From the sequence record NC_054933.1: a stretch of DNA of 64,000 nt, one strand, 5' to 3'. The position numbers and the translations under genes were made by a program. The notes below the pieces were generated by a model. The model saw only the letters and a list, made by a program, of their open reading frames with translations. It was not told the origin of the DNA and searched no databases. The DNA comes from Escherichia phage teqhad. Numbering within the stretch: position 1 is the first letter of the stretch; each line of letters opens with the position of its first letter. Positions 3,561-48,309 of this stretch are shown here, in pieces.

Positions 3561-3595
3561 AATTTCCTCATTCAAGTTTTAGTGTAAATTATAAA

Positions 3596-3607
3596 GGGCC
3601 GAAGCCC
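3596..3607 (-). terminator. UUCG-tetraloop hairpin in the 45-44 intercistronic region
   Basis: Minus-strand RNA GGGC-UUCG-GCCC. Confidence 0.5.
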
Positions 3608-3611
3608 TCTA

Positions 3612-4298
3612 TTAAAAATCGTGGGTAGAATCAGCTTCAAGAGCTACTACATAATTCGCATGTTCACCTTCAAATTTAGCAGCACCTTGTTTACCTTTTG
3701 CCCAGAGCAGAAGTTTATAATTTCCTGGTTGCATTTTCATATTTGCCATATTGATAATGAAATTAAATGTATTTTCACCATCATAATCACCAAGAGTCAA
3801 AGAATATTTAACACGGGTCAGAGCAGAATCTTCTACTTTATTAAAACCGTTAATTACGATTTTACCTTCTTTTACCGTGATAGCAATTGTATCAATTTGC
3901 AGACCACGAGATACACGCAACAGCTGTTGAAGGTCTTCAGCTTTAATTTCAGTAACAACAGATGCTACCGGGAATGGAATTGGTTTATTAGGAGCAACTA
4001 CTGTACTCGGATCGGCTGCTGGCCAAAAAATTGTTGAACGAGCATCAGCAATTTTAATATTTCCATCTTCTGACTGGGAAATTTCTGCATCATCATTAAC
4101 TAGAGACAGAATACCGAGAAAACCGTTCAAATCGTAAATTGCTACATCAAAATCAATAGTGTCAGAAATATTTGCTTCCGCATAAGTTGTACCATTAACT
4201 GCACGAGTCATAATAAATTGACCTGATTTAAGCATAATACCAGAGTTAATAGTAGCGAAATTTTTAAGCAGAGCAGTAGTATCTTTAGACAGTTTCAT
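3612..4298 (-). CDS. 45: DNA polymerase sliding clamp
   Basis: 228 aa, MKLSKDTTALLKNFATINSGIMLKSGQFIMTRAVNGTTYAEANISD... recognised as gp45. Confidence 0.95.
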   Translation of the reverse strand: MKLSKDTTALLKNFATINSGIMLKSGQFIMTRAVNGTTYAEANISDTIDFDVAIYDLNGFLGILSLVNDDAEISQSEDGNIKIADARSTIFWPAADPSTVVAPNKPIPFPVASVVTEIKAEDLQQLLRVSRGLQIDTIAITVKEGKIVINGFNKVEDSALTRVKYSLTLGDYDGENTFNFIINMANMKMQPGNYKLLLWAKGKQGAAKFEGEHANYVVALEADSTHDF

Positions 4299-9594: not shown

Positions 9595-9617
9595 TATATC
9601 AAACTCCGTATAAAGCT

Positions 9618-9636
9618 AAAGGGCCGAAGCCCTTTA
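9618..9636 (-). terminator. UUCG-tetraloop hairpin overlapping the a-gt stop codon
   Basis: Minus-strand RNA AAAGGGC-UUCG-GCCCUUU. Confidence 0.5.
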
Positions 9637-10836
9637 TTTTGTAATAATGTCAAACTGTTCTTTAAAGCAGAAGCTTGAATCTTGATGCTGATACAAAAAT
9701 TCATATGCTTTTTCTCGCTCACGGTCATAAAGAGCTCGGTCAGATGACAGTTCTTTAATACGCTCAAATGTTGATTCCATATCATTTTCATCAAACCAAA
9801 TGATACCGCTATCATGCGAGGTCAAAGGAGTATTATCAACACGGAATTTTAAATTTTCGCCAGTAGATTTCCAAAATACCGGAATTGTTCCACATGCACC
9901 AAGCTCGAGATGAGTATATTCTAAAGAACGTTGTAGATATTTTTTATCCAACTTACTCAACTGATAACCAAAACCGGATTTACTCATGCGTTCAAGCATT
10001 TCGCTATTTACATAACGATCAAGAATTTGCGTTGGCAAATTAGGAGCAATTTTAATTTGGTCTACTTGATGAAGACGATAATACTCGTATGGAATTCCTT
10101 TTTCTTTAATAGGAATGAACGCTGGAGAACGTTCCAGACCTTCCATAATAGTACTTAGTCCTGCAGGTTTAAGATGTTTTTCATGAAAATCAAACATCTG
10201 ATAAAAACCTTTCCATGTAGTCGTACGACCAATCCATCGGTTGACATTCATGTTAATTTCAGAAACATCTTTCCAGTAGGTTGACCGAACCTTCGCAATA
10301 TCCATAGGAGGCTGAAAGTTATATACGGTCGGCGCTTCTTCAATATCATCAAACAAAGAAACTGTTTCAGGATACCATTCTTTCATCAGAACTTTATTAA
10401 AATCGCCATTATCAGAATGACTAAAAATAACATCAGCTCGACGAACAGTTTCTTCTAATCCCAAATTTCGGCGCAAAGAAAGAGAAGAATGGTCATGTTG
10501 ATAAACTACAACACGAACCGAAGGTTTAATGTTATCAATAATTTTTTTATAGTTATTAATAGTGTCTTCTTCAACTGAAGTAGCAGGAACTGAATTGATA
10601 ATTAGAATATCACAATCATTTACCAGCTTAAGTGTTTTATCGTATTCTTTTGCCAATAAAACCGGAATTGAAAATGATTTATAATCATGTGCGCAATTAC
10701 GAGTAAATGATTTATCTTTAGCATAAACCAAAGTTACTTCATGACCATTTTTAATAAACCAATCACGTTGCTCAAGAGAAAATTTAGTTACACCACAACC
10801 TTCAAGACCTCGAGCCATAAAAATACATACTTTCAT
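9634..10836 (-). CDS. a-gt: DNA alpha-glucosyltransferase (hmC glucosylation)
   Basis: 400 aa; MKVCIFMARGLEGCGVTKFSLEQRDWFIKNGHEVTLVYAKDKSF... recognised as T4 a-gt. Confidence 0.92.
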   Translation of the reverse strand: MKVCIFMARGLEGCGVTKFSLEQRDWFIKNGHEVTLVYAKDKSFTRNCAHDYKSFSIPVLLAKEYDKTLKLVNDCDILIINSVPATSVEEDTINNYKKIIDNIKPSVRVVVYQHDHSSLSLRRNLGLEETVRRADVIFSHSDNGDFNKVLMKEWYPETVSLFDDIEEAPTVYNFQPPMDIAKVRSTYWKDVSEINMNVNRWIGRTTTWKGFYQMFDFHEKHLKPAGLSTIMEGLERSPAFIPIKEKGIPYEYYRLHQVDQIKIAPNLPTQILDRYVNSEMLERMSKSGFGYQLSKLDKKYLQRSLEYTHLELGACGTIPVFWKSTGENLKFRVDNTPLTSHDSGIIWFDENDMESTFERIKELSSDRALYDREREKAYEFLYQHQDSSFCFKEQFDIITK

Positions 10837-14105: not shown

Positions 14106-14135
14106 ATAATACCACGGTTTGAACCTGTTGTAAAC
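14106..14135 (-). promoter_or_regulatory. T4-type early promoter
   Basis: Minus strand GTTTAC - 18 nt - TATTAT with TG extension and A/T-rich upstream. Confidence 0.55.
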
Positions 14136-14217
14136 AACTTTGTGAAAAATATTTTAGGGAATGATAAGAAAGGAACGATAGCTTAGAATGGTAATATACA
14201 GAATGTGAGAAAGAAAG

Positions 14218-14231
14218 GCCCAGAGGGCCCG
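14218..14231 (-). terminator. GC-rich hairpin after the nrdH-like ORF
   Basis: GGCCC-AGA-GGGCC inverted repeat just 3' of the stop. Confidence 0.4.
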
Positions 14232-14233
14232 TC

Positions 14234-14541
14234 TTAATCTTCTATGATATCTCTATCATATCCAAGTGAAATGAGAGTTTCTTTGAAGTGTTTAATGTTC
14301 TTTTGTCTAGAATCATTAATGAAAATGACTGGATAACGAATGTTAAGAGATGTGAATCCAGCGCGTTTAGCAAGAGATACAATCAGAGGACGATCATACT
14401 CAATCTTACCGTTATTTGTAAGAACTTTATAGAAAGTAAAAGGAGCATTGAGCTCCTTTAGAAGTTTTGTAACTGATTGACATCCAGGACAACGACCTAC
14501 TTCATCTGGAATTCCATAGACTTCAATCTTATTCTTTAAGT
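14234..14541 (-). CDS. nrdH: glutaredoxin/NrdH-like redoxin; start codon uncertain (possible GTG)
   Basis: KIEVYGIPDEVGRCPGCQSVTKLLKEL with CPGC redox motif; no in-frame ATG near the conserved N-terminus; AAGGA 10 nt upstream of GTG at 14541. Confidence 0.55.
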
Positions 14542-21061: not shown

Positions 21062-22063
21062 TTACTTAATTAACTGTAAAGCTTGTTCAAGACGATCCAG
21101 GCGATTAACAGATTCTTCCCAAATCCTTTTAGCCTGCTCATATTCTTTCTGCGCTTTATTAGAAATTTCTAGAACTTCTTTATAAGCTTTTTCTAATGCA
21201 ATAACTTCTGGACGAATTTCTACCGGTTCAGGCGAATCATCAAGATTATCCATTAGTTCCTCAAGTGTAGTTTCTTCTTTAGGAGTATTCACAATTTCTT
21301 CACATTTTTGTTGGTAAATTTCTTTATCAGTTAGTGAATAAGCACATTTCACTTCACGAAGGCTAATTACGAGTTTATATCCTTCCCAACCGCATATATT
21401 CTTAAAAGGATATGTATGAATATTTTCTACTGTTTCCATACAAAGTAATGCGGTCTCTAATTGACGAGTTATAGTGCTAGCAATTGAGAAAAATTTATTA
21501 ATATTCTTTTGGTTAGTTTCTGGTGTAAAAAATCCATAATTCACAAAAATAGCTACTTTATTTTTATCAAGTTCATATTCTTTTATGATAATCATATCAG
21601 AAGCCAAAGGATGAATTTGACGATAATCGCCATAACATAATTTAGAAGCTGATTTTAGAATTTGCTTCTTGAAAAGTCTGAAATTACTAATCCAACGACG
21701 AGTAAAAATATTCTCAGGGTCTTCTTTATTATTGAGATGATAAGAATTAACATCACCGAACCAATTATATCCTACTACATCTTTAGTTCGTTTAATTTCT
21801 TTCCCAAAATTACCAAGAATATCCCGATTAACCAAATATGAAAGAAGACGAGACTCTTTAAAGGTTTTCTTGATAACATCTTTATCTACACGGCTAGAAA
21901 TTTTACGAATTTCATGAATAAATTTAGTAGAAGAAACAATACCTGCATCAACACTATTGAGCCATTGATTGATAATAGAAAGAACGCTATTTTGGCCAAA
22001 CATCGGTATAGCTTTATCATCAATAACGCTATTGAATGATTTGATATATTCGTTACGAGTCAT
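21062..22063 (-). CDS. hypothetical protein, member 2 of the tandem coiled-coil paralog family
   Basis: 333 aa from MTRNEYIKSF (ATG 22063-22061, GAGGAG SD); the track start lies upstream of the promoter -10. Confidence 0.6.
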   Translation of the reverse strand: MTRNEYIKSFNSVIDDKAIPMFGQNSVLSIINQWLNSVDAGIVSSTKFIHEIRKISSRVDKDVIKKTFKESRLLSYLVNRDILGNFGKEIKRTKDVVGYNWFGDVNSYHLNNKEDPENIFTRRWISNFRLFKKQILKSASKLCYGDYRQIHPLASDMIIIKEYELDKNKVAIFVNYGFFTPETNQKNINKFFSIASTITRQLETALLCMETVENIHTYPFKNICGWEGYKLVISLREVKCAYSLTDKEIYQQKCEEIVNTPKEETTLEELMDNLDDSPEPVEIRPEVIALEKAYKEVLEISNKAQKEYEQAKRIWEESVNRLDRLEQALQLIK

Positions 22064-22091: not shown

Positions 22092-22121
22092 ATTATACCA
22101 CATCCTTGTGGCAAAGTAAAC
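22092..22121 (-). promoter_or_regulatory. T4-type early promoter
   Basis: Minus strand GTTTAC - 18 nt - TATAAT with TG extension; -35 abuts the upstream stop codon. Confidence 0.6.
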
Positions 22122-24507: not shown

Positions 24508-25035
24508 TTATGCGAGTACCGTCTTTAACCGTTCTTCAAACTTCCGAAGAGTATTCTGGCGTTCAGCTCTTTGCTTTTTGTAAGTTTCAATACGCTCTGA
24601 AATGAGAGTGTATCGTTCATTTACTGATTCTTTCATAAAATCAGGAATTTCACGAGAAGCTTTAATCTCATCAAATTTATCAATAACAGCTTGCTCTTCA
24701 GCAATTAAGTTATCATACATCAAAATATCTTTCTTGATGAACTCAATATCTTCTTGAGTTACACGAGATAATTTAGATGCTTTATCCTTTTTGTACTGTT
24801 CGTTAGTATCACGAGACCAGTGTAATGTACGATTTTTATTCGTATTTTTGTAAATTTCTACAATACCAATCTCATCAATAATAACGATCCAATTCCAACG
24901 GGATTTGTAAATTTGTCCTCCATCAACCGTGATTTCACCTCCGATTGAGATGTCATTAAAGAACTTGCTTTGTGCTTCTGATTTAAATTTACCATCATTG
25001 TAATTTACCAGGTTGAAAATATCTTTAGCGTTCAT
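24508..25035 (-). CDS. hypothetical early protein
   Basis: 175 aa; ATG at 25035-25033 with GGAGG SD. Confidence 0.55.
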   Translation of the reverse strand: MNAKDIFNLVNYNDGKFKSEAQSKFFNDISIGGEITVDGGQIYKSRWNWIVIIDEIGIVEIYKNTNKNRTLHWSRDTNEQYKKDKASKLSRVTQEDIEFIKKDILMYDNLIAEEQAVIDKFDEIKASREIPDFMKESVNERYTLISERIETYKKQRAERQNTLRKFEERLKTVLA

Positions 25036-25063
25036 TTTCTGTTCCTCCGTAGTTGATAGTTGT

Positions 25064-25093
25064 ATAGTACCACAGAGGAACAGTCTTGTAAAC
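25064..25093 (-). promoter_or_regulatory. T4-type early promoter
   Basis: Minus strand GTTTAC - 18 nt - TACTAT followed by ACAACTATCAACT leader. Confidence 0.55.
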
Positions 25094-26502: not shown

Positions 26503-26532
26503 ATAGTACCATAAAGCTTTATGCTTGTAAAC
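26503..26532 (-). promoter_or_regulatory. T4-type early promoter
   Basis: Minus strand GTTTAC - 18 nt - TACTAT with A/T-rich UP-like tract. Confidence 0.55.
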
Positions 26533-26562
26533 CGTTTTGTGAAAAATTTTTGAAATAAAAAA

Positions 26563-26580
26563 GGGAGCCCGAAGGCTCCC
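26563..26580 (-). terminator. UUCG-tetraloop hairpin followed by a U-run
   Basis: Minus-strand RNA GGGAGCC-UUCG-GGCUCCC then UUUUUU. Confidence 0.6.
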
Positions 26581-28056: not shown

Positions 28057-28578
28057 TTATCCTTTCATTGAAGGTGTAACAGTTGTTAAATACTTAATCA
28101 TAGCCTCAGCTTCTGATTTTGATAGTGAAATTTCTTCACCGTTTTGGCGAATAGAAACAAAATCTGGATGACGATCACCACCAGCTTTTAAAACACACAT
28201 ATAAGTATCAGCTTCGCCTTCAATATTTGAAATGATTGAAGCAGTTCCACACGAATGTGGTTTTTGATAAATCAATACAGCTTTTCTTCCACCATTTGAC
28301 TGTTCATAGGCTTTTAATACATCAAACAAATCAGTTCTTTTATCAATAGCTAAGATGTTATTTTCATCTTCAATATTAAATCCTTCGGATACTTCATAAA
28401 GAGTTACCCATAAATCACCGATGTCAATAACAGCATTTACTTTTCCACGGCTTTCAAGAGTATGACAAATTTTCTTGATTTCGTCATAACTCATTTTAAT
28501 AATATCATCTCCTTGACTAAGGAAGATGTCATTTTTAAATTCAACACGAATTAAACCACTTCCACTTGAAATAAACAT
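28057..28578 (-). CDS. hypothetical protein (paralog pair A)
   Basis: 173 aa; C-terminal VSIRQ...SEAEAMIKYLTTVTPSM similar to the next ORF. Confidence 0.5.
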   Translation of the reverse strand: MFISSGSGLIRVEFKNDIFLSQGDDIIKMSYDEIKKICHTLESRGKVNAVIDIGDLWVTLYEVSEGFNIEDENNILAIDKRTDLFDVLKAYEQSNGGRKAVLIYQKPHSCGTASIISNIEGEADTYMCVLKAGGDRHPDFVSIRQNGEEISLSKSEAEAMIKYLTTVTPSMKG

Positions 28579-29573: not shown

Positions 29574-29705
29574 TACATACTCCTTTGAATCATATCAATA
29601 ATATTGTTCACCAGATTATAGGTAAACATTGGGTAATTATATTGAATCATCACATATATAACAAACAAAACTTTCATTCTCTTCTCCTTGACAGTTGACA
29701 AGATT

Positions 29706-29735
29706 ACTATACCATAACCTTGCCAACTTGTAAAC
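29706..29735 (-). promoter_or_regulatory. T4-type early promoter
   Basis: Minus strand GTTTAC - 18 nt - TATAGT. Confidence 0.55.
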
Positions 29736-30097: not shown

Positions 30098-30301
30098 TTA
30101 AACTCTCGTATTATGATCGATAATTTCATCAAGAAACATATCTAACGCTTCTAAAGCATTATCAACTTTAGCTTCAAGTTCATCAATGCCTTTATTTGCA
30201 ATGCCTGACGAAAACCAAGCAAAGTCACTAAGTTCCTCGTCTGCTTTACGAATTAAAGCTACCAATTCTTTAATCTTATCCGCTTGTTCGATACTAATCA
30301 T
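30098..30301 (-). CDS. small protein, ~60-aa paralog family member (start at [13 protein letters not shown])
   Basis: Internal ATG gives 67 aa and an ATGA-type junction with the upstream ORF. Confidence 0.45.
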   Translation of the reverse strand: MISIEQADKIKELVALIRKADEELSDFAWFSSGIANKGIDELEAKVDNALEALDMFLDEIIDHNTRV

Positions 30302-30489
30302 TATTCCACCACATATGAAAGAGAGAATATTGCACACGCCATGTGAGTTGCAACTTCATCACACATATTATAACGTTTCTTAAGAAGTTCTACAAGTTCT
30401 TCACTAGTAACTTCATCCATGTCGACGAAAAAATCACCATTAATGATGACGTAGATATTTCCTTCTTGATTAAGTGCTTCAATTTTCAT
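30301..30489 (-). CDS. small acidic protein
   Basis: 62 aa; GAGGAG SD. Confidence 0.5.
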
Positions 30490-30517
30490 GATGTTCTCCT
30501 CTTTATCCGATGGTTGT

Positions 30518-30547
30518 ATAGTACCACGGCTCAGACGGAAAGTAAAC
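30518..30547 (-). promoter_or_regulatory. T4-type early promoter
   Basis: Minus strand GTTTAC - 18 nt - TACTAT. Confidence 0.55.
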
Positions 30548-30562
30548 CGGTAAAATGAAAAA

Positions 30563-30580
30563 AGTCTCCCGAAGGAGACT
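30563..30580 (-). terminator. UUCG-tetraloop hairpin
   Basis: Minus-strand RNA AGUCUCC-UUCG-GGAGACU upstream of rI.-1. Confidence 0.5.
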
Positions 30581-34404: not shown

Positions 34405-34866
34405 TCATTGAGTTTTAATTACTGCTTTAGAAGCCTTTCCTGGTAAACGACGACTGTTGATAATTGCCATCCTGCATTGAAGTGACGGGTCTTTGAACTT
34501 CTCATTAGGCTTACAAACCGTAAATCCAAGCCAAAGATTTCCATCTGTGATTTCTAAACGTCCAGGACGATATTCAACCCCATCAATAAAATCCTCGTCA
34601 ATGTCAGGACGCGGAGGCATACTCAGGAATTCATTAACTTCTAAAACATGGTCTTTTATTTTATGGAATAATTCAAAAACATATGTCTCATCAATCTCCC
34701 GTTGAATTGCACGATCAAGAAGATGTTGAGAATATTTTAGATGAAACGATGAGACTCCTGCTGCTTTTGATGCCTCACGAATCTCATTGTTAATTTGACG
34801 AAACTCCGACTCAAAGTGACGACGAAGCTTATTTCGACGGATAAAAACTTCTGTATTGATAGTCAT
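34405..34866 (-). CDS. regB: RegB endoribonuclease
   Basis: 153 aa, MTINTEVFIRRNKLRRHFESEFRQINNEIREASK... recognised as T4 RegB. Confidence 0.9.
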   Translation of the reverse strand: MTINTEVFIRRNKLRRHFESEFRQINNEIREASKAAGVSSFHLKYSQHLLDRAIQREIDETYVFELFHKIKDHVLEVNEFLSMPPRPDIDEDFIDGVEYRPGRLEITDGNLWLGFTVCKPNEKFKDPSLQCRMAIINSRRLPGKASKAVIKTQ

Positions 34867-34925
34867 GTTGTTCTCCTCTTAACTGATAGAAAAATTATAC
34901 CACAGTCAAGAGGAAAAGTAAACAG

Positions 34926-37060: not shown

Positions 37061-37534
37061 TTATTTGAACGATTTAACGTACTGAATAGAACCTTTACTA
37101 TTTACAAAGGCAATTTTACCATTTTTATTATACATGGTAGCAGTACGTTGATAACCATAAGTTTGTTTACCAGATTGATAACCAACTAATGCGAAATTAT
37201 CTTCGCCCATTTTATTCTGTTTAGCGCGAATGCGTTCATGACCATGTGCCATAAGAACCTTAGCATCACCGGTTGCAATGGATCTACGAGTTTTTTCATC
37301 TTCAACTGTATTAACAAAGTCGTCAAATGAATCAAATTTAGCATGAGATTTATTATACAGTTTTCCATCTACTGCATAATTATATCCCTGTACATCCATC
37401 TCAACTTCTGTACCATCATCCAATACAGCAGTGATTTTTTGACCTTTTTTAAATTTCAAAAGATCAGTAAAAGATTCAGCAATAATTTGAGAATTAATAG
37501 CTGCTTCAGTGATAAATTCTTGATATGTTTTCAT
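37061..37534 (-). CDS. internal head protein (IP) with capsid-targeting sequence
   Basis: 157 aa; N-terminus MKTYQEFITEA is the T4-type CTS cleaved by prohead protease. Confidence 0.75.
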   Translation of the reverse strand: MKTYQEFITEAAINSQIIAESFTDLLKFKKGQKITAVLDDGTEVEMDVQGYNYAVDGKLYNKSHAKFDSFDDFVNTVEDEKTRRSIATGDAKVLMAHGHERIRAKQNKMGEDNFALVGYQSGKQTYGYQRTATMYNKNGKIAFVNSKGSIQYVKSFK

Positions 37535-37543
37535 ATGTTTCCT

Positions 37544-37960: not shown

Positions 37961-38019
37961 TTTATCCCTCCAAATAACTGTGAATATACTATCACAATTC
38001 TAGGAGAAAGTAAACAACT

Positions 38020-40784: not shown

Positions 40785-40806
40785 TCCTACTTACTCCAAG
40801 TAATAG

Positions 40807-40820
40807 GGGCCGAAGCCCCT
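40807..40820 (-). terminator. UUCG-tetraloop hairpin
   Basis: Minus-strand RNA GGGGC-UUCG-GCCCC. Confidence 0.5.
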
Positions 40821-40825
40821 TATCA

Positions 40826-41419
40826 TTATTTCAGAGAATTAATATATTCCTGAACATCGGCAGAGGTAGTTTCAACCCCAGAAATATTACCATTAAAGGT
40901 TTCAACTCGGGCGAGAGTATCTTCAATATCAACCTTAGTCAGCGCTGCAATTTCAACTACATCATCGGCAGTACTAATTCCAAGGGCATTCGCTGCACGA
41001 GTTTCACGGATATATTCCAATTTAACTGCAAGTTCTTGGCGAGCATCATCCAATTCAACTACTTTCTTGGCGATTTCAATTCGCATTTCAGCATAACCAT
41101 CAGCTTTAGTAGTCAACTGTTCAGCTGTTCGACGATATAGCAAGCCGAGTTTAGCATGCATTGTTACATCTTGACCTTCAGAAAGAAGCTTGCGAATTTC
41201 ACGCTCTTTTGATTCGGCCTGTCGATTCTTTTCGACAATAAGTTCACGAATACGTTTTTCTTCATTAATAGATTTAACAGAAGCAGTTTTTAGATCTTTA
41301 ATCTTATCAAGTAGTTTTGCTGCCGCAGCAGTATACTGTTCTTCAACAGATAGATTTTTAGCCATAGCAGAACCAAGTTTAGTGCGAATAAACTCAACAA
41401 TTTTCTTCAGTGTGTTCAT
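40826..41419 (-). CDS. coiled-coil protein
   Basis: 197 aa, largely heptad-repeat helical. Confidence 0.5.
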
Positions 41420-41476
41420 AGTATTTCCTTAGGTTGGTATAATTAGATAATATCACGTTTCTAATAGATTGTAAAC

Positions 41477-41812
41477 TTATTCTTCGTCTAGCTCGTCGAT
41501 AAAGGCGTCGATGGCCTCGACAACGGCATCATTGATAGCCAATAAAATAAAATCATCGTCAGTACCTTTAGAAGATTTTAAAGCATTGATATATGCTTGG
41601 TTGGCGAGTTCCCAAGCCTTTTTAAAATAAGGAGCTTCATCATCGGGGCCAACGAAACGTACGCCTTCAAAGATACGGTTAGCATAATCCAATACCCACT
41701 GTACAGGCATGTTTTGAGAACGTTCGTTAAACTCTTTAAATTCCTTAGATTCAAAAAGCTCTTCAGGATAATCATTTCTATTACAAAAAGCTTTACTAAA
41801 GTTACGTTTCAT
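41477..41812 (-). CDS. hypothetical acidic protein
   Basis: 111 aa. Confidence 0.5.
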   Translation of the reverse strand: MKRNFSKAFCNRNDYPEELFESKEFKEFNERSQNMPVQWVLDYANRIFEGVRFVGPDDEAPYFKKAWELANQAYINALKSSKGTDDDFILLAINDAVVEAIDAFIDELDEE

Positions 41813-41838
41813 AATGTTTTCCTTGTGATGATAAGTCT

Positions 41839-41868
41839 ATAGTAACGCCTTCATACTTAGATGTAAAC
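41839..41868 (-). promoter_or_regulatory. T4-type early promoter
   Basis: Minus strand GTTTAC - 18 nt - TACTAT; -35 overlaps the stop of the upstream small ORF. Confidence 0.5.
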
Positions 41869-42021
41869 TATTTCAACATCGCCTTTTGCTGTTTTATAAC
41901 CTTCAGCCCAAGATACAACCGAGTTTTTATCTGAAGATTCAAATTCTGGCATTGGGCTTTCGCCAATGTTCACGCAGTATGTTTCTTCATTTTCGTCGAA
42001 CCAAATAATTAAAGTAGTCAT
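41857..42021 (-). CDS. small ORF (54 aa), below track cutoff
   Basis: ATG 42021-42019 with GGAG SD 7 nt upstream; MTTLIIWFDENEETYCVNIGESPMPEFESSDKNSVVSWAEGYKTAKGDVEIVYI. Confidence 0.5.
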   Translation of the reverse strand: MTTLIIWFDENEETYCVNIGESPMPEFESSDKNSVVSWAEGYKTAKGDVEIVYI

Positions 42022-42057
42022 TTATTTCTCCGTTTCTGTATTTGTTTTGATAAGTCT

Positions 42058-42087
42058 ATAATAACACCATCCTTGGTGTTTGTACAC
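42058..42087 (-). promoter_or_regulatory. early-promoter-like element
   Basis: Minus strand GTGTAC - 18 nt - TATTAT. Confidence 0.4.
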
Positions 42088-42089
42088 AA

Positions 42090-42355
42090 TTATTTCATAT
42101 TATTGAAATATTCTTCTGCGATTTCGTCGTTATCATGGTAAACTTTAGAAGACAGTTTAACATAACCTTCAGCAGTGAACATGTTAATCACAACCTTTAC
42201 AGTATACCACTGACCATCTTCATTACCCATTACTGCGTAAGTTTCAAACATCGGATGGTCAGGACCGATAACTTTAATATCATTCACTGTACGACCGAAA
42301 TCTTCTGAAACACATTTCATAAAGAAGTTGAACAGCTCACCGTAATTATCCATTT
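42090..42355 (-). CDS. hypothetical protein (88 aa from MDNYGELF)
   Basis: GGAG SD upstream of the internal ATG; the track start lies upstream of the promoter. Confidence 0.5.
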
Positions 42356-42396
42356 CATTCTCCAAGTTGTTTTCTGTATCAGTAGTTGATAGTTGT

Positions 42397-42426
42397 ATAG
42401 TACCATGGAAGGGCAAGGATGTAAAC
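42397..42426 (-). promoter_or_regulatory. T4-type early promoter
   Basis: Minus strand GTTTAC - 18 nt - TACTAT, with A/T-rich UP-like tract. Confidence 0.55.
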
Positions 42427-42563
42427 CGTTTTGTGAAAAAATTTTTAAAAAGTTTTGGGGAATTCTAGGGCAGGAAGGGGAAATCAAAGGATAGGATAAT
42501 ATATTATAAAGGGTAGAAACTAAATGATGTCTAGAGAGGCCCGGAAAGGCCTAGATACCAAAA

Positions 42564-42587
42564 AGCCCCAACCTTTCGGCTAGGGCT
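42564..42587 (-). terminator. GAAA-loop hairpin downstream of the IP-like gene
   Basis: Minus-strand RNA AGCCCUAGCC-GAAA-GGUUGGGGCU followed by U-run. Confidence 0.55.
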
Positions 42588-42594
42588 AAGAATG

Positions 42595-43068
42595 TTATTT
42601 GATTTGTTTAGCAGACCAAATGCGATCTTTAATAATTTTTTGGATGTCTTCAACATACTCTAGGTCATGAGCATGTGGATTATCTTTGAAACTATGAGCT
42701 CGCGCAAGTTTCTGGCCTTCGGTCTTAATTATCAAAAGTTCTTTAAGAATTGCTTCATACCTAGAGATAATTCCTTTAGCAATATTTTTTTCTTGTGCTG
42801 CTTTAGGGTCAGCCTTAGGAGCAGGTTTACCTGAAGCCTTTGCAAAAGCAGCTCCAGTAGCAACTAAACTTTTCCAGGCCATACTAACTGCATTTCCCGT
42901 AAATCCTTCTGCTTTCATGTCGCGAGCAAATTGGAATCGTGATTCATCAGAAGCATCTTTATAGGAATATTTACCCGCTGCAATGGCTGCTTTTGCGACA
43001 GCTTGAATTTCGGTGCTAAACGCTTCATTTAACACCGCTTCATTTAAAAATTGAGTATATGATTTCAT
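42595..43068 (-). CDS. internal-protein-like protein with CTS-like N-terminus
   Basis: 157 aa; MKSYTQFLNEA resembles the CTS MKTYQEFIAEA; Ala/Lys-rich. Confidence 0.6.
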   Translation of the reverse strand: MKSYTQFLNEAVLNEAFSTEIQAVAKAAIAAGKYSYKDASDESRFQFARDMKAEGFTGNAVSMAWKSLVATGAAFAKASGKPAPKADPKAAQEKNIAKGIISRYEAILKELLIIKTEGQKLARAHSFKDNPHAHDLEYVEDIQKIIKDRIWSAKQIK

Positions 43069-43104
43069 CTTATTTCCTGTTTTAATTTGTAGATTTAATA
43101 TACT

Positions 43105-43112
43105 TATTTATA
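43105..43112 (-). promoter_or_regulatory. late promoter TATAAATA
   Basis: Minus-strand TATAAATA about 37 bp upstream of the IP-like ATG. Confidence 0.5.
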
Positions 43113-43118
43113 CTAAAA

Positions 43119-43142
43119 AGCCCCAACCTTTCGGCTGGGGCT
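43119..43142 (-). terminator. GAAA-loop hairpin, near-identical copy of the 42564-42587 element
   Basis: Minus-strand RNA AGCCCCAGCC-GAAA-GGUUGGGGCU followed by U-run. Confidence 0.55.
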
Positions 43143-43458
43143 AAGCCTTGCGGCAACCTTGTCGGGGTTCCACCTGCTAAGGCAAGTGTTTGTACGAAAC
43201 GCCGGGATTCGAACCCGGTTATCAAGCAGTTGACGCTACTCAATATTTTTAAAAGGCCATATCTCGACCATATCCGAACGTTCCGTCAAAAACGCTACTC
43301 GGCTTACGGCAAAGATATTTCCTCGAATCGATAATTCGGTGCGCCGTTTCTGCTGTGATGTAAGGGGATATTAACAAATCATAAAGATTTATTAAGACCA
43401 GTCCTTACTCAGGGAACATCAGTCCGACGTCTTGCCGGTAGCGACCCGGCTTCTTGTT

Positions 43459-44412: not shown

Positions 44413-45021
44413 TTATTTATTACGTGAAAAAGATTGTTCTATCAATTCTGGACACTTTCGTTCTATCCATTTTCTAGCTTTTTGTGGGCTTATACCTATT
44501 ATTTTAGCAGCTTTACTAACCCATCCAAATTTAGAATAATCGATTTTAACTAATTCTTCGTAAATTTCATCAGTTAAAATCTTTTCATTAATATTTACCA
44601 GTAAATGATATAATTTATTATCATTAGCAATTTTAATGAATCTTTTATAGTTTCCGCCTTTACTTAAACCTAATGAAGTAATTGCAGATGATATAGTAGC
44701 CGAATTTAATAATGCGTTTAAAATTTCTTCATCACTAACATTATAACGCTTTTTATTATTTTTAATATTTTTACCAGCAAAAGTATCAGTTTGCGAATGG
44801 CAATTTGGACATAATAATCTTAAATTTGATTTAAGATGATTTTTATTATTTCCATCAATATGGTCTAATTGCAGAACAATATGCTTATTTTGCCATTTTG
44901 AAATTTTACAAATTGCACACTCATATGGAAAAATATTTTCTTTTATTATTTTGTCTTTCAGCTTTCCTGTACTAAAATTTGGATGTTTTCCTTCAAAAAT
45001 TTCAGCTAATTTAGTATCCAT
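44413..45021 (-). CDS. HNH homing endonuclease with C-terminal helix-turn-helix, abutting tRNA-Leu
   Basis: About 202 aa from MDTKLAEIF; HNH core CAICK...QLDHIDGNNKNH...NLRLLCPNCHS; stop is 6 nt from the tRNA-Leu 5' end. Confidence 0.8.
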   Translation of the reverse strand: MDTKLAEIFEGKHPNFSTGKLKDKIIKENIFPYECAICKISKWQNKHIVLQLDHIDGNNKNHLKSNLRLLCPNCHSQTDTFAGKNIKNNKKRYNVSDEEILNALLNSATISSAITSLGLSKGGNYKRFIKIANDNKLYHLLVNINEKILTDEIYEELVKIDYSKFGWVSKAAKIIGISPQKARKWIERKCPELIEQSFSRNK

Positions 45022-46342: not shown

Positions 46343-46528
46343 TTATTCACCTTTAGAAATTTTATCCATAACGATAGCAATTAAACCAATTAAAAATGCT
46401 ACTACAAGTGAAAAAACATTTTCTGCTGTAGTCAATAATCCGCATATAAATCCAACAAACATTGAAAAACTAAAAGCAGAAGCAGAAATTGCAATAGCAA
46501 CATTTCGAATTAATTCACAACGTTTCAT
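46343..46528 (-). CDS. small membrane protein
   Basis: 61 aa with two hydrophobic helices. Confidence 0.5.
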   Translation of the reverse strand: MKRCELIRNVAIAISASAFSFSMFVGFICGLLTTAENVFSLVVAFLIGLIAIVMDKISKGE

Positions 46529-46556
46529 TTTATTCTCCTCAGTAGTAGATAGGGTA

Positions 46557-46586
46557 ATAGTATCACTACCCTATCTAAAAGTAAAC
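46557..46586 (-). promoter_or_regulatory. T4-type early promoter (duplicate of the 46857-46886 element)
   Basis: Minus strand GTTTAC - 18 nt - TACTAT; lies inside an 11-bp inverted repeat TAGATAGGGTA...TACCCTATCTA. Confidence 0.5.
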
Positions 46587-46838
46587 TTATTTTTTACGAA
46601 AAATTGATTTATATTTATCAGCCCATTTCTCGATGACTTTTTCTGGTCCATAGATAACAAAATAATCACCAAACTCTTCACCACCGAGTTGACCGAAATT
46701 ATCTAATGCATCACGAAGAACTCCATGAGGCATTTCGCCCATTTTATCTTTCTTACCAATGTAAATAAACTCAACTTTTACATCAGCAGCTTCAGCAATA
46801 AATTCTTGATACGTTTTCATTTTATTCTCCAATTTCAC
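46587..46838 (-). CDS. small internal-protein (IPI-like) with CTS
   Basis: CTS MKTYQEFIAEA beginning at the internal Met (76 aa from that start); position upstream of 57B as for T4 ipI. Confidence 0.7.
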   Translation of the reverse strand: MKLENKMKTYQEFIAEAADVKVEFIYIGKKDKMGEMPHGVLRDALDNFGQLGGEEFGDYFVIYGPEKVIEKWADKYKSIFRKK

Positions 46839-46856
46839 ATTTGTTTTGATAGGGTA

Positions 46857-46886
46857 ATAGTATCACTACTAAAACCCCGTGTAAAC
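46857..46886 (-). promoter_or_regulatory. T4-type early promoter
   Basis: Minus strand GTTTAC - 18 nt - TACTAT. Confidence 0.5.
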
Positions 46887-46898
46887 AACTTTGTGAAA

Positions 46899-47595
<697 letters not shown>

Positions 47596-47596
<1 letters not shown>

Positions 47597-48309
47597 TATA
47601 GTACCTTTAGTGTATTTTTAATTTTAGAAAAAAGTTCTTCAAGAGAACCATCGTTTGTAATTACTAAATCACCATCACGAATTGGCAATCCAGCTTCTGT
47701 AATATGTGTATCATTGGATTTTTGACCAGGACGAACTACATGAATTACTGTAGCACCCATCGCCCTAGCCGCATCCATTTCATGATCTTGACGAGTATCA
47801 GGAACAATATAATAATCATAACCTGAGTTAAATTTATCAAGATAATCTAAAGCAAATAATTTTACCCAGTACATGCGGTCGAAGTTATTAACAATCAAAT
47901 CCGTACCTAGGGCTTGCATCAGACGACGGACTGACCATTGATCTTCAATATTATTTATAACGTCAGCAATCTTGTTAAATGCTACGAAATTAACTACGTC
48001 ATCAAAAACAAACACACCTTTAATTGGGCTTTTACTATTAAGATAGCAAAATGCTTGTTCCATAATCGTAATTACTTCTAATTTAGTCAGATTTAAATTA
48101 GTTTCACGATCATAGTCAATTCCTTCAAACTCTTTACGAGTTAAACAAGGATAGTCAGTGTTTGCTGCAAATACACCCCATGCATAAGCCAATGCATCTT
48201 TAATAGGACCAGCAAGTTGATATTTAACTGCAGAATAATTGCTCATGATAAAATCTGCAGTAGTATCTTTTCCACTACGCTTTACACCGCTTAAAAAGAT
48301 TAGTTTCAT
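47596..48309 (-). CDS. 1: deoxynucleoside monophosphate kinase
   Basis: 237 aa from MKLIFLSGVKRSGKDTT (P-loop); strong GAGGAG SD; track start is upstream. Confidence 0.85.

Follow-up and report, generated by a model that had tools for sequence, protein, structure and literature searches.

Probable early-promoter modules of Escherichia phage teqhad: recurrence, relation to breakpoints in relatives, and complementarity between promoter spacer and leader

Introduction

The original consensus work on T4 early promoters is said to be that of Liebig and Rueger in 1989 and of Wilkens and Rueger in 1996. The early promoters (Pe) of T4 are described as UP/-35/TGn/-10 promoters (Hinton 2010, PMC2988021), and regB is reported to have a typical early promoter (PMC3014915). 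Cassettes of early promoters with stem-loops (PeSL) were described for RB49/phi1 (Arbiol 2010, PMC2839356) and for PST/T4 and nt-1/KVP40 (Comeau 2014, PMC4122927), where the PST/T4 promoter consensus is TTTACW-N17-TAYWAT. Mini-circles resulting from inter-PeSL recombination were demonstrated in RB49 and phi1 (Arbiol 2010, PMC2839356). The internal-protein loci of T-even phages have PeSL analogues which derive their build from T4 early promoters and in which the stem-loop is weak or missing (PMC2839356), and these polymorphic internal-protein (IP) loci are bounded by early-promoter elements (Repoila 1994, as relayed in PMC2839356 and PMC4122927). A further arrangement is known from the T4 genes e, soc, 49 and I-TevI, the translation start of which is hidden by a hairpin with a promoter inside (PMC3014915).

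The repeats studied here are an element already known, namely the T4 early promoter, and the shuffling ascribed to them is the published PeSL hypothesis. They share with T4 Pe (PMC2988021) the -35/TGn/-10 build, with a clear UP tract at some sites, GTTTAC, the 17-bp spacing and the orientation with the early genes, as well as a collinear genome and orthologous sites such as the regB promoter. Nothing essential is unlike; teqhad has an additional promoter (42058) with a 54-aa ORF, and no ipII/ipIII promoters. Like PeSL cassettes, they are early-promoter modules that recur with an AT-rich tract, Shine-Dalgarno and ATG and have the promoter consensus of PST/T4; some of them lie within variable regions, beside indels between close relatives, and there are cassettes flanked by two copies. 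They differ from PeSL in that just 2-4 of 14 copies have a stem-loop upstream, the cores mostly abut the upstream stop codon, and breakpoints are not significantly in excess at modules compared with other junctions of the window. As at the T-even IP loci known from the cited summaries, it is internal-protein genes that are swapped at 46587-46820 and next to 37986, with early-promoter elements as their boundaries, but such boundaries also occur here at the non-IP nrdC.10/11 and e.6-e.8 genes.

Results

Window and promoter core

The window, that is, the whole 64,000-nt stretch of NC_054933.1 that was analysed, is of Tequatrovirus origin with approximately 98% identity to phages vB_Eco_EL and slur02. 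T4 was collinear with the window over T4 28.5 to ~91 kb at ~95% identity, and comparison among T-even phages revealed near-identical modules in T4, T2, RB68, ESh36, HY01 and EcNP1. The Rfam scan returned tRNAs only, and the T4 GenBank record contains no promoter features.

Searching for GTTTAC-N18-TAnnAT yielded 15 exact matches against 0.28 expected, a count which was reached in no shuffle. All 15 were located on the minus strand, where no GTTTAC/TAnnAT pair could be found at N16, N17, N19 or N20. Scanning with a masked weight matrix with pseudocounts revealed 14 strong sites with scores of 23-34 (Table 1), while the shuffle maximum was ~19, the plus-strand maximum 10.5 and the next-best minus-strand score 14. 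The sequence-only reading had proposed a recurring core with eleven copies on the minus strand; the core is borne out by these counts, and every one of the eleven 30-mers was recovered in place. The remaining sites are 34894-34923, 37986-38015 and 41447-41476. The modules also came out as the top direct-repeat families (D1-D3, D7, D8, D13 and D14) of an unbiased repeat search, and the composite of AT-rich tract, -35, -10, Shine-Dalgarno and ATG is repeated many times in the window.

Table 1. Candidate early-promoter modules of the window and a neighbouring terminator
Feature	Position	Strand	Score	Gene presumably driven	Sequence and structure	Relatives
Module 14106	14106-14155 (core 14106-14135)	-	29.3		UP tract 14136-14155; hairpin 14211-14235 just past nrdH, 75 nt upstream, -13 kcal/mol	
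Module 22092	22092-22121	-	26.7	nrdC.4 (21062-22063)	Spacer palindrome CCACA-AGGA-TGTGG	
Module 25064	25064-25093	-	33.7	nrdC.8 (24508-25035)	Spacer arm 25073-25083 pairs with Shine-Dalgarno arm 25039-25049; dG -25.5, z -6.2	
Module 26503 (most complete)	26503-26580 (core 26503-26532)	-	31.3	nrdC.10	UUCG terminator hairpin 26563-26580 (-17.2 kcal/mol), T-run, UP tract 26533-26552	Extra cassettes inserted here in T2, HY01, ESh36, EcNP1
Module 29706	29706-29735	-	24.7		-10 TATAGT; arms 29715-29727 and 29694-29706 either side of -10, z -4.3	
Module 30518	30518-30547	-	32.4	mobD.5 (30301-30489)	Adjoining UUCG terminator hairpin 30563-30580, then T-run; -10.3 kcal/mol, 15 nt from -35	
Module 34894 (beyond the earlier list)	34894-34923	-	29.7	regB (34405-34866)	Spacer arm 34903-34915 pairs with Shine-Dalgarno arm 34873-34885; dG -22.4, z -5.4	
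Module 37986 (beyond the earlier list)	37986-38015	-	23.1		Between e and denV; spacer arm 37992-38008 pairs with denV Shine-Dalgarno arm 37965-37983	T4 ipII/ipIII insertion point
Module 41447 (beyond the earlier list)	41447-41476	-	25.6	e.6 (40826-41419)	e.7 stop codon TAA adjoins GTTTAC	Breakpoint in T2, RB68, HY01, EcNP1, L010, L017
Module 41839	41839-41868	-	28.3	e.7 (41477-41812)	-35 and spacer overlap stop codon of 54-aa ORF	Left edge of 234-nt segment that T4 lacks
Module 42058	42058-42087	-	27.3	54-aa ORF 41857-42021 (phrog_5461)	GTGTAC variant; spacer palindrome ACACCA-AGGA-TGGTGT	Right edge of indels in T4, RB68, HY01, EcNP1, L008, L017
Module 42397	42397-42426	-	31.3	e.8 (42090-42353)	GTTTAC-N18-TACTAT, TGn = ATGG; UP-like tract 42427-42446; leader ACAACTATCAACT	Orthologous to T4 70.6 kb
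GAAA-loop intrinsic terminator	42564-42587	-			Ends tRNA/rnaC unit, ~140 nt upstream of module 42397; second copy 43119-43142 (repeat family D18, 94% identity)	
Module 46557	46557-46586	-	33.5	trna.4 (46343-46528)	Arms AGATAGGGTA (46567-46576) and TACCCTATCT (46547-46556) either side of -10, z -4.0	Breakpoint in 7 close relatives
Module 46857	46857-46886	-	32.4	Internal-protein gene 46587-46820 (phrog_8111)	UP tract 46887-46905	

The -35 element was GTTTAC in all sites except 42058 (13/14), and the -10 element was TAnnAT in all except 29706 (13/14). Their spacing was invariant across the 14 sites (17 bp counted from TTTACA), and the core fits the PST/T4 PeSL consensus. An extended -10, with TG two bases 5' of the hexamer (GTGG, ATGG or GTGA), could be seen in 12 of 14 sites, the deviants being 41839 (GCGT) and 42058 (GTGT). 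The UP region showed a clear AAAAATTTTTCACAAA tract at 4 sites; in compact sites it coincided with the 3' end of the upstream CDS and was merely A/T-rich in general. A start codon with a Shine-Dalgarno of the GGAG type was situated 25-43 nt downstream of each of the 14 sites, and the core usually abutted the stop codon of the preceding gene.

All sites are on the minus strand and lie within 1-47 kb, and the part of the window with late genes on the plus strand contained none. The numbers of genes from module to module were 30, 16, 4, 2, 7, 4, 13, 9, 7, 1, 1, 1, 9 and 1. It had been suggested that most small genes sit between two copies, but only 4 genes were directly flanked in this manner, 3 of them within 41477-42426.

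Stem-loops and accessory elements

The complete cassette outlined by the sequence-only reading is present in a minority of the copies. A tetraloop hairpin had been included as a part of it, but a GC-rich hairpin with a T-run directly upstream was found in only 2 of 14 modules (26503 and 30518, both UUCG). The A/T tract TTTCACAAA(A), ascribed to every copy, was detected in 4 of 14 with at most 1 mismatch (14106, 26503, 42397 and 46857), and the leader assigned to every copy (ACAACTATCAACT) was exact at 25064, 26503 and 42397 only. A supposedly recurrent CCAAGGATGG occurred exactly at 42058 alone (1/14). The description as PeSL-like holds for the kind of promoter, which is early and matches the consensus, but not for the stem-loop.

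An upstream-hairpin search revealed no hairpin within 100 nt in 10 of 14 modules, and convincing terminators could be found within that distance upstream of 2-3 modules only. On that count, and also because most UUCG hairpins are not attached to a promoter, the idea that a stem-loop belongs integrally to the repeat was rejected. Hairpins of the same UUCG type were also located at 3587-3612, 9612-9637 and 40798-40823 (family D11). T4 reportedly carries C(UUCG)G tetraloop hairpins in its intercistronic regions, as Tuerk and colleagues are said to have described in 1988. The UUCG hairpins upstream of 26503 and 30518 are similar to these, although most UUCG hairpins in the window are without an attached promoter.

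Breakpoints in close relatives

A breakpoint map was prepared from ten close relatives, with each record compared separately. Indel or swap breakpoints coincided with 6-7 modules. Synteny breakpoints had been expected to coincide with module copies, and the outcome was mixed: such coincidence was evident against random positions, as 11 of 67 distinct breakpoint edges lay inside modules covering 3.1% of the sequence (p = 6e-6), but it was not significant against gene junctions. Breakpoints were present at 8 of 14 module junctions and 42 of 104 other junctions (Fisher p = 0.18), and at 8 of 14 versus 12 of 28 among junctions with spacers of at least 40 nt (p = 0.29). Because these junction-level tests were non-significant, modules as preferred breakpoints are not upheld and are not claimed here, and a role in shuffling therefore holds only for a subset of modules.

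Among the 50 variable junctions, 42 were without a module, and 201 of 230 breakpoint edges were situated at gene junctions of any kind. Seven modules (14106, 22092, 25064, 29706, 30518, 34894 and 42397) had no breakpoint in the close relatives. Many indels, and according to the breakpoint map most of them, were homing-endonuclease insertions unrelated to modules (mobB, mobC, I-TevII, mobD, segB and segE). Together with the p values of 0.18 and 0.29, these observations favor a reading in which the modules are promoters only, alike through convergence or conservation of a polymerase-binding sequence, and share breakpoints merely by being intergenic, with no role in rearrangement.

Against this stand cassette events at certain loci. 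At 26503, T2 and HY01 carried an extra ORF between two complete copies of hairpin, UP tract and promoter, and the window had a single hybrid copy; the alignments to T2/HY01 overlapped by 39-50 nt, and the insert is bounded by direct repeats of that length. Modules 42058 and 41839 flank the 54-aa ORF 41857-42021, which is absent from T4, where one promoter is present. The internal-protein gene 46587-46820 was swapped between modules 46857 and 46557. Likeness between modules also reached past the positions contacted by polymerase: an identical 55-nt stretch from -10 to ATG was shared by two unrelated genes, the internal-protein gene at 46857 and nrdC.10 in ESh36 and EcNP1, and leaders were common to each of the adjacent pairs 41839/42058 and 46557/46857. 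The inter-PeSL mini-circles of RB49 and phi1 (PMC2839356) likewise speak against promoters without any part in rearrangement. That reading is the strongest of the rivals and nevertheless appears rather unlikely. The idea of shuffling modules is retained for the loci with clear cassette events, where recombination appears to be the cause of the breakpoints, but not in general, since half of the modules were never breakpoints in the close relatives.

Complementarity between spacer and leader

In approximately 40% of the modules, the promoter spacer was complementary to its own leader or Shine-Dalgarno, and the resulting spacer-leader hairpins had z values of -2.1 to -6.2; in 5 of 14 modules no notable hairpin was observed (z above -1.2). 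At 25064, 34894, 37986 and 30518, the Shine-Dalgarno/AUG was paired with a 5' arm upstream of the start site of the internal promoter. Translation-start regions behind Pe had a mean z of -1.9 compared to -0.04 for 80 other genes (p = 0.002). When cognate pairings were compared with swapped spacer-leader pairings across 27 families, the cognate was stronger (p = 2e-4). In 9 of 38 promoter families the Shine-Dalgarno was covered by a duplex of at least -12 kcal/mol in strength; a cognate duplex this strong was present in 14 families, and in 9 of these the 3' arm was the gene's own Shine-Dalgarno.

Complementarity between spacer and leader was maintained through compensatory changes across lineages. 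Upstream of regB, three lineages with differing sequences each had a perfect stem. Upstream of denV, four classes of spacer-SD stem were seen, along with a fifth class in which the 5' arm lay just downstream of the -10. In the 25064 stem, some substitutions in close relatives were not compensatory. The predicted gain in Shine-Dalgarno accessibility was moderate; the smallest was a rise from 0.27 to 0.41 and the largest one from 0.15 to 0.63. The hairpin of gene e was recovered in the window with a z of -3.6.

The arrangement resembles the T4 e, soc, 49 and I-TevI hairpins in that the 5' arm lies upstream of the start of the internal promoter and the 3' arm over the Shine-Dalgarno, and in that long transcripts are predicted closed and short ones open. 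In those T4 genes, however, the internal promoter is late or middle and the gene is therefore delayed, whereas the window modules are early and their own spacer is the anti-Shine-Dalgarno arm. An early internal promoter in the hairpin would limit translation to the gene's own early transcripts, and the spacer-leader hairpin may thus act as a translational gate. It is possible, and we propose it tentatively, that in many early promoters of the T4 type the 17-bp spacer commonly doubles as an anti-Shine-Dalgarno arm which insulates the gene from read-through RNA. No mention of early-promoter hairpins upstream of regB or denV was found in the Virology Journal reviews; the older T4 literature may have it.

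Dyad symmetry could also act at the level of DNA, as cruciforms or operators which shut off early promoters or attract endonuclease VII. Palindromes within non-transcribed DNA at 26503 (CATAAAG/CTTTATG), 42058, 22092 and 14106 would suit such a role, and the shut-off mechanism of early promoters is described as incompletely understood (PMC3014915). The arm sequences, however, vary from promoter to promoter, and there is therefore no common operator; the 3' arm is the gene's own Shine-Dalgarno in 9 of the 14 strong-duplex families, and variants of 46557 keep their pairing through G-T/G-U changes, which fits RNA and not DNA. We consider the DNA-level explanation improbable.

Mobile elements and other promoter classes

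A spread of promoters by transposition, with the modules as ends or remnants of MITE/IS-type mobile elements, would account for many dispersed copies and for the same module at non-homologous loci. Such an origin is highly improbable and a MITE-like element was rejected: no terminal inverted repeats or target-site duplications surround the copies, no transposase is nearby, all copies have the single orientation of transcription, conservation falls precisely on the elements that polymerase contacts, and the variable spacers are tuned to the Shine-Dalgarno of the local gene. MotA/AsiA-dependent middle or gp55-dependent late promoters, of which the former also have a sigma-70 -10, often with TGn (PMC2988021), and the latter do occur in the region, e.g., TATAAATA at 43105-43112, were rejected with similar firmness, as the -35 position holds GTTTAC in place of a MotA box around -30, the -10 reads TAYWAT and not TATAAATA, and an early promoter is documented for the regB orthologue (PMC3014915).

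Discussion

The modules are very probably sigma-70 early promoters which in part serve as homology patches for cassette exchange and which are insulated by a terminator or a spacer hairpin. We infer promoter activity and timing from the sequence and from orthology. In the proposed model, a Pe module would consist of an A/T-rich UP-type region, the -35 GTTTAC(A/T), a 17-bp spacer, TGn and the -10 TAYWAT, followed by a short leader and a strong Shine-Dalgarno. Host RNA polymerase would fire the modules at once upon infection, and each would start a minus-strand transcription unit of 1 to 30 small early genes. Their resemblance would mainly reflect selection for very strong polymerase binding, and in part also that entire modules were copied or exchanged from one locus to another.

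At variable loci, the 40-100 bp of common module sequence may act as a homology patch. Candidates are the junction of nrdC.10 with nrdC.11, both internal-protein loci and the stretch from e.6 to e.8, which contains the interval flagged at the outset (41839-42426). Cassettes with their own promoter could be inserted, deleted or exchanged at these patches, which would be PeSL-type shuffling as put forward by Arbiol (2010) and Comeau (2014).

Insulation may be conferred in two ways. A minority of modules would rely on an intrinsic terminator just upstream, and approximately 40% on the complementarity of the spacer to the module's own leader or Shine-Dalgarno. The spacer is DNA without base-specific reading by polymerase. 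Read-through RNA would fold into a hairpin whose loop contains the -10 and which hides the ribosome-binding site, and with it the GGAG target of RegB. RNA initiated at the module would be devoid of the 5' arm and remain open.

What the flagged repeats contribute is little more than a test of PeSL shuffling in numbers, in part a sobering one, in a further T4-like genome: modules are found at some of the most plastic loci, yet they do not coincide with breakpoints significantly more often than other junctions do. Swaps of small genes at such places are usual in this group of phages. The use of the spacer as an anti-Shine-Dalgarno arm, if true, would amount to a compact rule for designing gene cassettes that work independently of context, and would extend the late-promoter hairpin gate to the early class. 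Each promoter-gene module would then be translationally insulated from its genomic context, which would explain the transfer of modules between loci without misregulation. In the same case, regB, denV, nrdC.8 and mobD.5 would be tied to the 2-3 minute burst of the early promoters, and this would give a testable reason for the transient-only expression of early genes such as regB.

Genomic setting of the promoter modules

By megablast, the region 41839-42426 was assigned to Tequatrovirus, with 98% identity to Escherichia phages vB_Eco_EL, Solly, and slur02/04 and matches in more than 1,000 T4-like records. Collinearity of the window with T4 (AF158101) begins at T4 position 28,556 and continues past 78,000, with approximately 95% identity and about 20 indels. 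The interval is located between the tRNA/rnaC cluster and gene e.6.

Features of the window and predicted hairpins at the promoter modules (modules are named by the lower coordinate of their 30-nt core)
Feature	Coordinates	Strand	Annotation or stability	Remarks
Early and middle region	1 to ~50,300	minus		gene 43 to gene 4
Late genes	beyond ~50,300	plus		remainder of the window
e.8	42090-42353			in 41839-42426
54-aa ORF	41857-42021		phrog_5461	in 41839-42426
e.7	41477-41812			start of gene in 41839-42426
25064 (nrdC.8) hairpin	25039-25083		-25.5 kcal/mol, z -6.2	3' arm over SD
34894 (regB) hairpin	34873-34915		-22.4 kcal/mol, z -5.4	3' arm over SD
37986 (denV) hairpin	37965-38008		-17.3 kcal/mol, z -2.5	3' arm over SD
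30518 hairpin	30496-30541		-16.0 kcal/mol, z -2.1	3' arm over SD
29706 hairpin	29694-29727		z -4.3	flanks -10; 3' arm is first ~10 nt after -10
46557 hairpin	46547-46576		z -4.0	flanks -10; 3' arm is first ~10 nt after -10

Identification of the modules as early promoters

All 11 of the 30-mers listed in the sequence-only reading were recovered in place on the minus strand. The pattern GTTTAC-N18-TAnnAT had 15 matches against 0.28 expected, a count reached in no shuffle; all were on the minus strand with a spacing of strictly 18, and a scan of that strand of the window gave no matches at N16, N17, N19, or N20. A masked weight matrix produced bimodal scores, with 14 sites at 23-34 (the next-best minus-strand site scored 14, the shuffle maximum was about 19, and the plus-strand maximum was 10.5). 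These comprised the 11 listed sites together with 34894, 37986, and 41447, and a promoter-blind repeat finder returned the same modules as its top direct-repeat families.

The conserved positions, a -35 (G)TTTAC(A/T), a 17-bp spacer, TGn, and a -10 TAYWAT, correspond to the contacts of the sigma-70 holoenzyme. An A/T-rich tract precedes the -35 at some modules, and the core is followed by a short leader and a GGAG-type Shine-Dalgarno sequence (SD), with 25-43 nt from core to start codon. The T4 early promoter has been described as an 'uber' UP/-35/TGn/-10 promoter (PMC2988021), and the consensus of the promoter-early stem-loop (PeSL) cassettes of PST and T4, TTTACW-N17-TAYWAT (PMC4122927), equals that of the window modules. 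The sites were nearly invariant across T4, T2, RB68, ESh36, HY01, and EcNP1, and module 34894 is the promoter of regB, which has been described as a typical early promoter (PMC3014915). Middle and late promoters could be ruled out because the cores contain neither a MotA box nor TATAAATA. Sequence and orthology thus identify the modules with high confidence as T4 early promoters, which would be active as such.

Anatomy of the cassette

The recurring cassette was confirmed in its core, including positions, strand, and spacing, while its full anatomy had been overstated. A tetraloop hairpin, proposed as a regular component, immediately precedes just two modules, 26503 and 30518, each time with a UUCG loop followed by a T-run. 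A further hairpin lies 75 nt upstream of 14106, and the GAAA-loop terminator of the tRNA unit lies about 140 nt upstream of 42397. No convincing hairpin could be found in the 100 nt upstream of 10 modules, in most of which the core adjoins the stop codon of the upstream gene (e.g., TAA-GTTTAC at 41447 and 46557). Four sites have the TTTCACAAA tract and three match the leader ACAACTATCAACT exactly; CCAAGGATGG, described as frequent in the spacer, was seen at one. Most small genes were said to sit between two copies; only four genes are directly flanked by two modules, three of them in or adjoining 41839-42426, and the module-defined transcription units hold 30, 16, 4, 2, 7, 4, 13, 9, 7, 1, 1, 1, 9, and 1 genes.

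UUCG hairpins of the GGGCUUCGGCCC type also occur without a promoter at three intergenic sites on the minus strand (repeat family D11): 3587-3612 (genes 44/45), 9612-9637 (47.1/a-gt), and 40798-40823 (e.5/e.6). These are probably terminators or mRNA stabilisers.

Gene exchange at the modules

Several loci conformed to the PeSL model. In T2 and HY01, the nrdC.11/nrdC.10 junction additionally holds an ORF of about 160 codons, with a full set of terminator hairpin, T-run, AAAAATTTTTCACAAA tract, and promoter on either side. The window has one such set, in which the hairpin corresponds to the first copy and the core to the second. An overlap of 39-50 nt between the alignments is what a crossover in the common A/T-rich tract would be expected to give. 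ESh36 and EcNP1 have two other small ORFs at this junction, and their nrdC.10 is driven by a different module, in which 55 nt from the -10 to the ATG match the window 46857 module (46813-46869) with one mismatch; one module therefore serves two unrelated genes. The match is direct evidence for the copying of an entire promoter-leader module between loci.

The e.8/e.7 gap contains one promoter in T4 but two promoters with the 54-aa ORF between them in the window, and T4 homology stops inside both cores. The segment from 41447 to 42058 was replaced or deleted in T2, RB68, HY01, and EcNP1. The gene between 46857 and 46557 encodes an internal virion protein (phrog_8111), and every relative has other internal-protein genes in its place; ipII and ipIII of T4 are inserted exactly at module 37986. 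Both belong to the polymorphic internal-protein loci that earlier work has discussed (PMC2839356, PMC4122927).

Repeat family D4 (37499-37541, 43033-43075, 46785-46827) covers three ORFs with a common 5' end, MK(T/S)Y.EF.., two of which belong to annotated internal virion protein families. This shared end is the conserved internal-protein leader and gives these variable loci a second patch of homology. A 36-nt GAAA-loop terminator, duplicated at 94% identity (42555-42590 and 43110-43145), flanks ORF 42595-43068 (157 aa, phrog_2280). The N-terminus of this ORF is internal-protein-like, and the late-promoter motif TATAAATA lies ahead of it at 43105-43112. The ORF is missing from T4 and T2; in other relatives, a different insert, about 667 nt long, is found at that hairpin. 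The window cassette is bounded by stem-loops, not promoters.

Of the 10 tRNAs encoded in the window, those for His, Asn, Tyr, and Met are absent from T4. An HNH endonuclease ORF (44413-45021, minus strand, phrog_14736, E 5e-124) occupies the place of tRNA-Gln in T4, T2, RB68, and others; only the first 9 nt of this tRNA remain (TGGGAATTA), and no tRNA-Gln was found in the whole window.

Breakpoints and modules

Comparison with 10 close relatives of at least 94% identity (T4, T2, RB68, ESh36, HY01, EcNP1, and four IMG/VR contigs) revealed 62 distinct events with 67 distinct breakpoint edges. Eleven edges fell inside modules (26503, 37986, 41447, 41839, 42058, and 46557), which constitute 3.1% of the region (binomial p=6e-6), and 46857 was 22-38 nt from an edge. 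Module 42397 held a breakpoint in the distant set of six contigs (~70% identity) and was stable in close relatives.

The coincidence of breakpoints with modules was evident against random positions but not against other junctions, which were judged the fairer null. Gene junctions of any kind held 201 of 230 edges. Variable junctions numbered 8 of 14 with a module versus 42 of 104 without (odds ratio 2.0, p=0.18), and 8 of 14 versus 12 of 28 when spacers were at least 40 nt (p=0.29). Among the eight, junction 42353-42595 owes its variability to the duplicated terminator rather than the promoter. Modules 14106, 22092, 25064, 29706, 30518, and 34894 were stable in every relative examined, and many remaining indels are homing endonucleases (mobB, mobC, I-TevII, mobD, segB, segE, and others). 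The breakpoints therefore neither miss the repeats altogether nor coincide with them cleanly. About half of the modules fit the proposed shuffling, which is statistically inseparable from a tendency of breakpoints to lie between genes. The PeSL-type interpretation, already published for T4 and PST, was right in kind.

Predicted hairpins embedded in the promoters

Folding of the sequence running from the -35 as far as the start codon predicted, for six of the 14 modules, a hairpin of unusual stability that places the -10 hexamer in its loop; five modules gave no hairpin signal. The promoter spacer forms the 5' arm, which is therefore present only in read-through RNA and missing from module-started RNA. 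In 70-nt translation-start windows, the mean z was -1.9 for 13 genes with a module versus -0.04 for 80 without (Mann-Whitney p=0.002), and the known lysozyme hairpin was recovered (z -3.6). Predicted SD accessibility rose from the long to the short transcript at 37986 (0.15 to 0.63), 34894 (0.28 to 0.50), 30518 (0.36 to 0.57), and 25064 (0.27 to 0.41).

Unusually structured translation starts not behind an early promoter were also seen at 48309 (gene 1, z -4.0), 9594 (47.1, -2.8), and 45021 (the HNH ORF, -2.8). Homing-endonuclease genes are known to hide their ribosome-binding site, and the predicted structure at 45021 would fit this habit. Short spacer palindromes ending in TGn were present at 26503 (CATAAAG/CTTTATG), 42058 (ACACCA/TGGTGT), 22092 (CCACA/TGTGG), and 14106 (GGTT/AACC), with no leader partner for any of them.

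Across 27 promoter sequence families from the window and 16 relatives, cognate spacer-leader duplexes averaged -10.5 kcal/mol versus -7.3 kcal/mol when swapped (permutation p=2e-4). After addition of IMG/VR homologues of regB, denV, and nrdC.8, a choice of genes that biases the sample, the difference persisted in 38 families (p=5e-5), and duplexes of -16 kcal/mol or lower occurred in 10 of 38 cognate pairs versus 1.6% of swapped pairs. Compensatory variants were observed upstream of all three genes in diverged phages. The arms upstream of regB differ yet remain complementary in three lineages (TTCCTCTTGACTG/CAGTTAAGAGGAG, TTCTCCTCTAGTTG/CAACTAGAGGAGAA, and TCTCCTGTAAG/CTTACAGGAGA). Four classes of spacer-SD stem occur upstream of denV, including TTCCTCCAAG/CTTGGAGGAA, ATCTCCGTTTG/CAAACGGAGAT, and TCTCCTGTAG/CTACAGGAGA. 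A fifth class has its 5' arm between the -10 and the start site. Evidence against the hairpin reading comes from the five modules without a signal and from close relatives in which the 25064 stem is weakened by a few substitutions.

In T4, the principle is known from hairpins at e, soc, 49, and I-TevI that enclose a late promoter, and RNA structure protects GGAG from RegB (PMC3014915); in the window modules, the enclosed promoter is early. No such hairpin at early promoters was described in the reviews consulted; older T4 work may already mention it, so the novelty of the arrangement is uncertain.

Proposed function of the modules

Host polymerase would fire the module promoters at once, each starting a unit of early genes. 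Insulation from upstream transcription may be provided by a terminator at two to four modules and by the spacer/anti-SD hairpin at about six; the predicted folds show the structure of this hairpin and suggest its insulating function. The modules have 40-100 bp in common and carry their own expression signals, so the T4 recombination machinery could insert, delete, or exchange cassettes at them. Such exchange, not general to all copies, is supported by four loci here and by the RB49/phi1 experiments, and would leave neighbouring genes undisturbed.
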